Shown piece by piece: positions 20,868 to 61,253 of a DNA stretch of 64,000 nt. Made by a program: the position numbers and the translations under genes. Each line of letters opens with the position of its first letter. The first letter of the stretch is position 1. Origin of the DNA: Octopus vulgaris (Eukaryota); assembly GCA_951406725.2 (NCBI GenBank), contig OX597830.1, positions 17,732,001 to 17,796,000 on the forward strand, read 5' to 3'. Below the pieces are notes generated by a model that worked only from the letters and a program-made list of their open reading frames with translations, did not search any database and had not been told where the DNA came from.

Positions 20868-21648
20868 AGGCGGCGAGCCGGCAGAATCGTTAGCACGCCG
20901 GGCGAAATGCTAAGCAGTATTTCGTCTGCCGCTACGTTCTGAGTTCAAATTCCGCCGAGGTCAACTTTGCCTTTCATCATTTAGGGGTCGATTAAATAAA
21001 TACCAGTTACGCACTGGGGTTGATATAATCGACTTAATCCCTTTGTCCTTGTTTGTCCTCTTTGTGTTTAGCCCCTTGTGAGTAGTAAAGAAATAGGTAT
21101 TTCGTCTGCCGCTACGTTCTGAGTTCAAATTCCGCCGAGGTCGACTTTGCCTTTCATCCTTTCGGGGTCGATTAAATAAGTACCAGTTGAACACTGGGGT
21201 CGATATAATTAACTTAATCCCTTTGTCTGTCCTTGTTTGTCCTCTCTGTGTTTAGCCCCTTGTGGGTAGTAAAGAAATAGGTATTTTGTCTGCCGCTACG
21301 TTCTGAGTTCAAATTCCACCGAGGTCGACTTTGCCTTTCATCCTTTCGGGGTCGATTAAATAAGTACCAGTTGAACACTGGGGTCGATATAATCGACTTA
21401 ATCCCTTTGTCTGTCCTTGTTTGTCCTCTCTGTGTTTAGCCCCTTGTGGGTAGTAAAGAAATAGGTATTTCGTCTGACGCTACGTTCTGAGCTCAAATTC
21501 CGCCGAGGTCGGTTTTGCCTTTCATCCTTTCGGAGTCGATTAAATAAGTACCAGTTGAACACTGAGGTCGATATAATCGACTTAATCCCTTTGTCTCTCC
21601 TTGTTTGTCCCCTCTGTATGTAGCCCCTTGTGGGCAGTAAAGAAATAG
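20868..21648 (+). mobile_element. SINE type C concatemer: one head plus 4 tandem ~184-bp bodies
   Basis: Unit starts (gtattt.gtctg) at 20917, 21097, 21281, 21465; a single flanking TSD gtctatgatatat. Confidence 0.93.
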
Positions 21649-22372
21649 GGGTCTATGATATATGTATACAATATAAAAAGATTCAGGGGGTACCCAAAAC
21701 ATTTGTCAGGAGTTACATGTACTATTTACAACTGTTTGGTTCAATTCCATGCGACTTAATTAATTTTATGTGATACGAACTATGATGTGGTCAGTAAATT
21801 GTAAAGTGATATTTCGAATGCAGTGTACTGCCAACATATTCTAGCTGGATGAAATATAAGCTGAACTGTCAACTGCTACCCGTTAAACTGTGTATTATTT
21901 TAACAACATAGGTGGTGCATAAGCCGTGTGTTATTCTAACAACGTAGCATGAAATATCAACTATGTTGTTACTTCCCAACTCATTCGCTATCGTATTTAA
22001 ATGAGAAGATATGATATTTTTGATATTTAACCTCTGTAATGTGAAACCGAAATCGAATATGATATCATGATTGTTTAGTTACGAGACGTCACAATTTTTA
22101 CAAGCATTCTGTAATTTCTAAATTATTTTCTGTAATATCAAGATTGAGTTGTTATATTTATTTAAATGACGGTATGAAATCGAAACCCCTGTGTAACGTA
22201 CCAAGACTATAACCAGATGGCGCTAAATAAATACAGATGTAACACCTTAGATCAGGGATACAACAGAAGATTTTGGATCCCTGTTGTGTATTTAGCTACA
22301 ATATGACTGAGCGCATATTCTCACGTTTGAGCCTTATTGGACATACTTGCGTATGTATATGTATTGTAATAT

Positions 22373-41166: not shown

Positions 41167-41833
41167 TACCACTCACCATATATTGCCAGACAGATCTTTC
41201 GTGTAATTTACGTGCTTAAAACCCTGAGTAAGATCAGAGTGAATGTACCATCAATTGATTGCCAGTAACTGTACGTACTCAATATTTTTAATTCGTAATT
41301 ACAAATGTCGGTGTGCATATGTGAGTGTACGTGTACTTTTGTGGGTGGGTGTATAATTGTGTATATGAATGTGCGCGTGTATGAGTGTTTGATTTGTTCC
41401 AAGGCGACACTATGTCTCGAATGTCGCCAAGTATTTCTAACCGAAAGTAATATTCAGACATAACATCTTTTCTTATGGCAACAAACCATTGTTCGTGATT
41501 TCTCAGCATATACCATTGATTGACTGTTTTGTACAATAAAGTGAATGGAATTGTATATAGCAGCAGTAAATCTCATACATTGCGTGTTGAATGAGAGAAA
41601 ATTTAAAAACTTCGTAATAAGTGATAAATGAGCAAAAAGTTAACAAAAGTATTTTGTGTGAATCCTATACATATGTTTATAATTCCTAGGTTTTAAATTC
41701 AAATTTCTAATCCCAGCAAATATTATAAAGAAGTGGTGATCTTCCTTGATTTATCTGCTACCATTAGGAGAACTACACGCGAATGGAAAGTATTGCTAGC
41801 AATTCTCGAAACTATTTTGCGATTGTGATATTA

Positions 41834-42150
41834 CATCTTTCGCTTGCTCATGAGTGGGATAACGCATCTTTCGCTTGCTCACCAGTGAGATACCGCATCT
41901 TTCATTTGCTCACGAGTGAGATACCACATCCTTCGCTTGCTCACGAGTGAGATACCACATCCTTCGCTTGCTCACGAGTGAGATACCACATCCTTCGCTT
42001 GCTCACGAGTGAAATACCACATCCTTCGCTTGCTCACGAGTGAGATATCGCATCTTTCATTTGCTCACGAGTGAGATACCACATCCTTCGCTAGCTCACG
42101 AGTGAGATACCGCATCTTTCATTTGCTCACGAGCGGGATACTGCATTTTT
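41834..42150. repeat. 31-bp minisatellite, ~10 copies
   Basis: catc(c/t)ttc(gc/at)ttgctcacgagtgagatacc(a/g), period 31 (41834, 41865, 41896, 41927 ... 42144). Confidence 0.95.
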
Positions 42151-54422: not shown

Positions 54423-54891
54423 TATTACATAGTTTACAACGATGGGTGTATACACACACAAACACACACACACACACACACACATACACACGCACACAGA
54501 TAGATAGATATTTAGATAGATAGATAGATATATAGATACATACATACATACATACATTTTTTTTCAAAATGCAACCACATATGAATTGTTAGTGAATTGT
54601 TTTGAAGCTACATAAAAAATTTCTAATCTCACAGCAGAACAAACACCGCAAGTTTCCTTTAGCTAAAACGTTTCGCCGTAAGTTATATCGTTTATTCGTA
54701 AACTTGAACTACCTGATGTACGTGGATAATTACGTGTAATTTCTTTGAAGTGGATTTCGGAAAGGGGGTATGTTGATGTTATATGATTTTGAATAGATTG
54801 CAGATGAGTCTAATGTATGTCTTAGAAAAATTATTGCAATGGACGGTACATGGGTTAGCAATATTTTTAGTTTGATATGAAATTTAGGAAT

Positions 54892-55057
54892 AGGCGCAGG
54901 AGTGGCTGTGTGGTAAGTAGCTTGCTAACCAACCACATGGTTCCGGGTTCAGTCCCACTGCGTGGCATCTTGGGCAAGTGTCTTCTGCTATAGCTCCGGG
55001 CTAACCAATGCCTTGTGAATGGATTTGGTTGACGGAAACTGAAAGAAGCCCCTCGTA

Positions 55058-55116
<59 letters not shown>

Positions 55117-55288
55117 TTTATTTTAAGCAGCAGAAAATTCAACAAAATCTGTTACTCTGAGTTTCTCGTTGCCGTTCATCAGACAGATTTTGTTGAATTT
55201 TCTGCTGCTTAAAATAAAGCATATTACTCTACCACTGGTATTTGAGTACTCTTTTTTCCACCTTGTTTCACATTTATGTGTTTACTCC

Positions 55289-55369
<81 letters not shown>

Positions 55370-55562
55370 TTGTGTGTCTGTGTTTGTCCCCCTAGCATTG
55401 CTTGACAACCGATGCTGGTGTGTTTATGTCCCCGTTACTTAGCGGTTCGGCAAAAGAGACCGATAGAAGTCCCGGGGTCGATTTGCTCGACTAAAGGCGG
55501 TGCTCCAGCATGGCCGCAGTCAAATGACTGAAACAAATAAAAGAGTAAAAGAGTAAAGAGAG
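54892..55562 (+). mobile_element. SINE type B, full length, with an element nested in its TA tract
   Basis: Family match on both sides of 55112-55290. Confidence 0.92.
55117..55218 (-). ncRNA. Type-I hammerhead ribozyme motif closed by a perfect 36-bp stem
   Basis: ...UCUGU-CUGAUGA-ACG-GCAA-CGA-GAA-ACUC-A-GAGU-A^ACAGA...; arms 55117-55152 and 55183-55218. Confidence 0.72.
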
Positions 55563-56055
55563 TTAATGCAATTAGAATTATTAGTAATGAGACTGAGTTT
55601 AGGCTAATTCAAATCAGAACGGCTTGATGAAGCAAGTAATTTAGTGGAGTAAAAGATTTCAATAAACTTATAGTGAAAGTTTTATAATATTTATGCTGTA
55701 GTGGAAAGCGATTCTTAAGTAACTTAAGAATACACGGTTGCTACACTGATTAACGGATTGAACTAGCTCATATTTCTTTCATATTTCAATGATTAACCAG
55801 ACGTACAAGTTCATTGATGTGCATAATTTTTGCATTAATTTTTTATATAAAGTTATTATTATTGCATGGCGGCGATTTGGCAGAGCTGTTTGTTTGTATA
55901 TACATATAACATACACACACAAAAAAACCAAACGTATAGACTTGTGAGCTCATATAGATACACACATATATAGATTCAGATGAATATGGTACTTAAGTTG
56001 AGGCACCAGAATTTAGTACGGTATTATCCATACAATTTCAAAATAAGGTGATTAA

Positions 56056-56368
56056 AATCAAAATAAGCAACAAGGATATCCAGAGGTAATGCAGTACGAT
56101 CGTTTCATGCAACTCCATTTCATTGAACAATGCAATCATTTCATTACATCAATTTAAAATGTAGAGCAATCTTCAGCTACACAAAGACATAGAATTTAAT
56201 TAAATTAGTTTTGTTCTAATTTAATTAAATTCTATGTCTTTGTGCAGCTGAAGATTTCTCTACATTTTAAATTGATGTAATGAAATGATTGCATTGTTCA
56301 ATGAAATGGAGTTGCATGAAACGATCGTACTGCATTACCTCTGGATATCCTTGTTGCTTATTTTGATT
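56056..56368. repeat. Near-perfect palindrome: 153-bp arms, 7-nt loop, 2 mismatches
   Basis: 56056-56208 is the reverse complement of 56216-56368; loop ttttgtt; part of an element extending left to ~55970. Confidence 0.96.
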
Positions 56369-56488
<120 letters not shown>

Positions 56489-61155: not shown

Positions 61156-61253
61156 ATCTCTGACGAAGCCTAGAGAAACAACCATGTACCTTAATTTTTT
61201 GCCTACTAGAGTAATAAAGGTAGAATGAGGTATGGCTGAAACAGCTGTAAGTT
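61156..61253 (+). ncRNA. Hammerhead ribozyme motif with large stem II insertion
   Basis: CU-CUGACGA-AGCC-[63 nt]-GGCU-GAA-ACAGCUGU-A^AG immediately after a (TA)n tract. Confidence 0.62.

Follow-up and report, generated by a model that had tools for sequence, protein, structure and literature searches.

Two cDNAs, copied from the uncleaved RNA of one Penelope-type element, primed 71 nt apart (at +37 and +108) and joined through stem I of a hammerhead motif, are the probable source of a hairpin insert in the Octopus vulgaris genome; we assign this reading a probability of roughly 0.7. Family numbering takes the base after GTA as +1. The plus arm of the hairpin starts right after the predicted cut of the hammerhead, and the hairpin does not count as evidence of ribozyme cleavage of the RNA ahead of insertion. 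Junctions in the family follow microhomology.

The insert and its element family

The window is the whole 64,000-nt stretch of DNA that was analyzed. Its insert is a 174-bp, 5′-truncated, head-to-head pLTR remnant of a Penelope-type element seated in (TA)n, with target tracts on the left (positions 55064–55112) and right (55291–55355). Comparison with other copies places the insertion in the internal TA tract of a common host repeat (54889–55568, plus strand). The site is empty in other copies of the repeat and carries a different junction type in one of them (L011); shared ancestry of the window copy and L011 was ruled out, since the two have the host repeat in common and no unique flank. By sequence comparison, the untailed pLTR arm lies on the minus strand (55117–55186, family positions −34 to +36) and the tailed arm on the plus strand (55183–55290, +1 to +108), where the last 71 nt (55220–55290, +38 to +108) form an optional tail found in one arm only. 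The untailed arm carries a motif read as a type I hammerhead core (55153–55182, minus strand) with CUGAUGA, a 2-bp stem II and GCAA loop, unpaired A10.1/A11.1, GAAA, a palindromic stem III and a GUA triplet. The candidate cut predicted from this motif lies between 55153 and 55152 on the minus strand.

The minus strand reads CUGU-CUGAUGA-ACG-GCAA-CGA-GAA-ACUCAGAGU-A^ACAG, exactly as the initial annotation had it, and the 36-bp stem described there is indeed perfect: 55117–55152 pairs with 55183–55218 without exception and encloses a 30-nt loop (55153–55182). The hairpin energy is −53.9 kcal/mol (z −11.65), and 0 of 200 shuffles were equally stable. The plus arm had been described as starting with the sequence that follows the cut and continuing through AATAAA into (TA)n. 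It does start with ACAG at 55183, but it does not run from AATAAA into the repeat; it extends 71 nt further to 55290, and the arm that stops at AATAAA is the minus arm. The claim that the junction sits at the cut holds in that the plus arm starts after GTA, but a single-base placement is impossible because ACAG (55183–55186) belongs to both arms. This microhomology is the inner 4 bp of stem I, and the inversion junction lies within it. Native stem I is a 12-bp helix with mismatches that starts at the cut, so a junction made by stem I begins at the cut by construction.

The genome holds 4,478 exact matches to a 27-mer taken from the arm. Long copies show a tandem unit with a period of 3,362 bp (L066) that includes a long 3′ UTR and a single ORF with RWK, DKT, YRDD, CxCX5C, GVVY..YTG, CxxC and CxH motifs; GNKY is also present. 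The ORF copy that was read carries a frameshift and gives two pieces. P0001 has YRDD at 62, CNCKNESSC at 280, GVVY..YTG at 298–318, CRLC at 385 and CRH at 413, and lacks CX2-5CxxC; P0002 has RWK at 53 and DKT at 129. The Atlas neighbors of the protein are RT-domain clusters (score 0.98) and RT/GIY-YIG clusters, while Pfam returned 0 matches for four frames of the ORF and the PDB returned 0 matches for the ORF. An RT and, at the C terminus, a GIY-YIG-like motif in one ORF are what define endonuclease-positive Penelope-like elements, and the layout is also Penelope-like, with pLTRs from partial tandems, an inverted 5′-truncated copy and a tail at one end. This layout and the hammerhead are already known for Penelope-like elements.

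By its motifs, the element matches the description of the Hydra clade in the available portions of Craig et al. (2021, PMC8557442), which suggests a Hydra-clade-like Penelope element. The common traits are RWK, DKT in place of DKG, a CxCX5C linker replacing CX2-5CxxC, CxxC and CxH in the endonuclease in place of CCHH, the C-terminal GIY-YIG-like motif, a pLTR hammerhead, (TA)n insertion and the inverted 5′-truncated copy with a one-sided tail. The octopus element differs in its 3,362-bp unit, compared to generally <3 kb, and in the presence of GNKY, compared to an unconserved GxKF/Y, although both clade features are tendencies rather than rules in the same source (PMC8557442). Its 71-nt tail is longer than the usual 30–40 nt and its copies number in the thousands; the likeness is one of motifs.

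The window also holds a second, unrelated head-to-head repeat (56048–56376) with 161-nt arms that are 97% complementary and separated by a 7-nt spacer. Each strand has a hammerhead motif (56248–56329, plus; 56095–56176, minus) with a CUGAAGA core, a very long stem II, a palindromic stem III and a GUA triplet; its junction lies upstream of stem I, away from the cut. Two tandem repeats were noted, a 184-bp unit in four copies with 94% matches (20917–21649) and a 31-bp unit in ten copies (41833–42141).

The native hammerhead motif and the two 3′ ends

The hammerhead was called by a core pattern match and reading by eye. The pattern has 2 matches in the window compared to 0.21 expected; the second (61160–61188) was dropped because it lacks stem I. 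Rfam returned no hammerhead match for the whole window at the gathering score, nor did a native copy match any hammerhead family at E ≤ 10. The type I features are present, namely the CUGANGA core, GAAA, NUH and stems I–III. In intact copies, the 12-bp native stem I contains an A-A mismatch (+5) as well as a G-U pair (+11), and stem III has 3 bp as a monomer and 8 bp as a predicted dimer. Base frequencies were taken from 109 intact arms, a non-random sample. At +5, 98 arms have A, 11 have G and none has T; at −35, T is found in 14/109, where stem I then pairs perfectly across 10 bp. Position 11.1 is occupied by A in 99 arms, by G in 8 and by T in 2; the 10.1-11.1 pair at the base of stem II is therefore A-A in 99/109, A-G in 8/109 and A-U in 2/109, and most arms lack this pairing feature. 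The suggestion that A10.1-A11.1 is a late mutation of the window copy does not stand, because it is the state of the family.

Two copies are predicted to pair through the palindromic stem III (−7.4 kcal/mol), and the monomer hammerhead fold (−5.5 kcal/mol) is predicted to be less stable than an alternative fold (−10.3 kcal/mol). The predicted pairing and folds fit the dimer-type, weakly active hammerheads of Penelope-like elements in the available text of two reports (PMC4209133; PMC6765202). As in the metazoan hammerheads surveyed by Cervera and de la Pena (2014, PMC4209133, in the part available), the octopus motif is type I, resides in a pLTR, has a palindromic helix III suited to dimers and belongs to a family with opposite-strand pairs 100–700 bp apart. 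It is unlike them in its very short stem II, which lacks the highly conserved G10.1-C11.1 pair. Other subfamilies (L303, L304, L309, L310 and others) have a CCGAUGA or CCGACGA core and U or G at 11.1, and in them the A10.1-U11.1 pair occurs naturally alongside the changed core. The hammerhead core loses its 3′ half through small deletions between 3–6-nt direct repeats, which recur in the family (L119, L125, L160, L116, L122, L140 and L157).

The 3′ ends of 100 position-ordered arms fall at two sites, with 48 at +37, 39 at +108/109 and 13 scored elsewhere. Here and below, samples of 100 are the first listed places rather than random draws, and several short arm ends were scored by local alignment. 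These arms include 33 head-to-head pairs. A second set of pairs has exactly one tail in 58 of 59 cases, and the +29 allele is identical within the pair in 120/120 pairs, which shows that both arms come from one source element. A fold-back of a single cDNA is excluded by sequence for the window copy, because neither arm contains the other. The inverted 5′-truncated copy and the one-sided tail are known in Penelope-like elements (PMC8557442, available text). In vitro, as given in the accessible part of Frangieh et al. (2024, PMC11167929), the tail corresponds to the interval between two sites of RT initiation, cutting and extension take place on both strands of the target, and insertion is normal for hammerhead mutants.

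A similar sequence of events would account for the window insert. The endonuclease of the element would nick both (TA)n strands, and each nick would prime reverse transcription, one at +37 and the other at +108. Both cDNAs would have the same polarity and so could be joined only where the RNA is self-complementary. Stem I would be the longest such stretch, and a microhomology join would form there. Flap trimming would then leave one arm starting inside the 3′ strand of stem I and the other inside the 5′ strand, and stem I would grow into the 36-bp clamp.

Copy 5′ ends at the cut and at −47

The initial annotation had a different template, an RNA whose 5′ end is the ribozyme product. In such a model, a first cDNA would reach the end of the cleaved RNA at +1 and pair through stem I with a second cDNA that had read past the uncut site. 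The annotation asked whether junctions in other copies cluster at GTA^ACAG and took unrelated junctions as evidence against the model. We did not find a peak at this site. The 5′ starts of 100 position-ordered arms number 0 at −1 to +2, 1 at −9 to −2, 3 at −19 to −10, 9 at −29 to −20, 10 at −39 to −30, 34 at −49 to −40, 2 at −60 to −50 and 4 at −200 to −61, with 37 further upstream. Genome-wide, 487 arms start between −10 and +14 under a three-base filter. Removal of 18 same-strand deletions or indels from the first 100 left 82 junctions, and 8 of these fit +1 under a generous rule, compared to 6–18 (mean 11.5) at 21 other positions.

A similar result came from arms that abut (TA)n directly at the cut. 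Their 22 rows represent 18 places: a start at +1/+2 suits 8 of them, 9 are compatible with either −2 or +1, and the last carries an additional base. The number at a control site that matches the repeat over 2 nt is 23, compared to the 18 at the cut. About 200 such arms are estimated at −47 by extrapolation from 42 scored by eye in the first 100 of 477 rows. Scoring by eye of the first 100 of 143 rows gave (TA)n-joined starts of 6 at −10, 4–5 at +1 and 4 at +3, and every other (TA)n-joined class near the cut is smaller than the ambiguous −2/+1 class, with 10–11 of these rows. The very short palindromes at 34 loci, also scored by eye, are centered at +1 in 4, +3 in 3, −1 in 3 and the stem III palindrome in 4, and 4/34 have arms at +1/+2. 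The junction of the window copy is absent from the first 50 of 83 loci with a 31–60-nt gap. There is no excess of copy 5′ ends at the cut, and these data leave the proposal that the template was a ribozyme product unsupported.

The copies pile up upstream of the cut. Filtered starts at −49 to −34 number 1,066 over 16 positions, compared to the 487 over 24 positions around the cut. The arms that reach exactly −47 number 477, and 1,909 arms read through −52. The pile-up spans −47 to −43, and the 34/100 arms at −49 to −40 stand against 4/100 at −200 to −61. Hundreds of copies start at −47, and many of them are solo pieces of 84 nt or 155 nt that abut (TA)n (L284–L313, L013). The −47 site is CCATTCT, which fits the initiator consensus. 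The pile-up likely marks a transcription start. An internal promoter is present in Penelope (PMC2377424, available text), and Inr-like motifs occur in Adineta pLTRs (PMC3846280, available text). If an internal promoter starts transcription at −47, most short copies would record RNA with the ribozyme kept uncut. A cap-derived G before −47 is not claimed; it was seen in 12 of the first 100 rows, and the partner arm accounts for most of these cases. A 3′ splice site at −41 (TTCTAG) was rejected as the cause of the pile-up, because the starts lie upstream of −41; there is also no recurring exon before −40 in the rows seen, and A occurs at −41 in 21/109 arms.

Junctions through stem I

The strand switch through stem I complementarity proposed in the initial annotation is supported by 16 independent copies in the same register. 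An exact pattern identified 13 of them and L002, L007 and L117 add three, where L002 and L007 came from a search biased to the form of the window copy. The flanks of these clamps are unshared, which indicates that they arose independently. The 5′-strand base T is found at +5 in 10/13 clamps and places the visible crossover beyond the cut. Stem I segments of 4:5:1 nt hold crossovers in the ratio 3:8:2 (test against proportionality, p 0.44, n = 13). Microhomology of at least 3 nt is found in 16/51 filler-free inverted junctions compared to about 4.5 expected, and the stem I register is found in 4/51 compared to 0.38 expected; fillers are present in 24/75 junctions. A functional RNA device or an assembly artefact is a highly improbable account of the clamp. 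The hairpin is very stable, as a device might be, and the public contigs of four runs showed no start or end sites and none that spans the whole stretch. However, graph contigs break at repeats, so these contigs are uninformative, and the predicted lowest-energy fold lacks the catalytic core. The 16 independent loci share the register with different subfamily alleles and different flanks, and the junction of the window copy is one type among hundreds.

Cut and uncut templates cannot be told apart by the clamp class on its own, because flaps are trimmed on both sides and mismatch repair may set +5 either way. The window copy and five others (L002, L007, L117, L208 and L209) carry the 3′-strand base at +5 and fit a +1 start, and the palindromic stem III, through which two copies are predicted to pair at −7.4 kcal/mol, also favors the ribozyme-cleaved template. 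Against it are the 5′-strand base in 10/13 clamps and the lack of a start excess at +1 outside stem I (0/100; 8/82 against a mean of 11.5; 18 against 23 at the control). Published data point the same way: metazoan hammerheads of Penelope-like elements cleave weakly and not as monomers (PMC4209133), and no reads of the anole element began or ended at the cut (PMC11167929), each in the available part of the report. We consider a cleaved template for the window copy unlikely.

One-tailed clamps have a directional bias. The tailed arm starts in the 3′ strand of stem I in 13/15 (binomial p 0.007), and this 13:2 ratio differs from the 21:18 of other short-arm junctions (Fisher p 0.03), although it is one unplanned test. 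The 21:18 ratio also rejects the idea that the tailed arm is generally shorter. Pure microhomology does not predict the 13:2 bias, and a cleaved template would fit it if cleavage fell between the first and second cDNA. The bias, like the ambiguous −2/+1 class, allows for a small fraction of cleaved RNA. It is doubtful that a minority of insertions records in vivo cleavage, with the RNA cut between synthesis of the +37 and +108 cDNAs, but this would explain the 13/15.

The same bias bears on an origin after insertion, in which a longer two-hammerhead palindrome lost 54 bp by slippage between ACAG(T/A)TTTTG direct repeats, which stem I creates in a head-to-head pair. Such slippage yields exactly the sequence of the window copy and the same crossover spread. 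Two-hammerhead precursors are the commonest short form (L009, L021, L022), microhomology deletions are frequent in the core (18/100 rows are same-strand deletions or indels), and deletions of this kind are reported in Penelope copies (PMC3846280, available text). Equal loss of either hammerhead is expected from slippage, yet the bias is 13:2, and no precursor allele was seen at the locus of the window copy, where L011 shares the host repeat only and not the unique flanks. This origin has a small but real chance of being correct.

The proposed joining of two cDNAs through stem I of uncleaved RNA can be compared with two systems described in the available portions of the cited reports. Poseidon_Ac of the green anole (PMC11167929) likewise has two fixed 3′ ends that define the tail, an AT-rich target, a hammerhead near the pLTR-ORF junction and uncleaved RNA as the apparent template. 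In contrast, the first ATG of the octopus element is at +176, downstream of the tail, rather than inside the hammerhead, and the octopus case is known from genomic sequence alone. The Penelope palindromes of Adineta vaga (Arkhipova et al. 2013, PMC3846280) have the same head-to-head inverted junctions with an optional tail, an Inr-like motif in the pLTR, and microhomology joins and deletions. Self-priming on an antisense template was proposed there; the window copy differs in needing two products, because neither arm contains the other.

The role of the hammerhead in Penelope-like elements and the origin of their inverted ends are open questions (PMC8557442, available text). We found no study that tallied pLTR junctions relative to the hammerhead cut in a literature drawn mostly from papers outside subscription, and the supplementary files of Craig et al. 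may already list this family. The family census is in line with uncut RNA as the main template, the result obtained in vitro (PMC11167929, available text). It indicates a probable transcription start 47 nt upstream of the cut, and it suggests an origin of inverted ends from a pair of products, both of one source element, that are joined at microhomology. A warning also follows: stem I by itself leads one to expect a junction at a hammerhead cut site. If minority cleavage is true, the junction census, together with the −47 start, would for the first time map the sites of start, cut and priming in vivo in a Penelope-like element.
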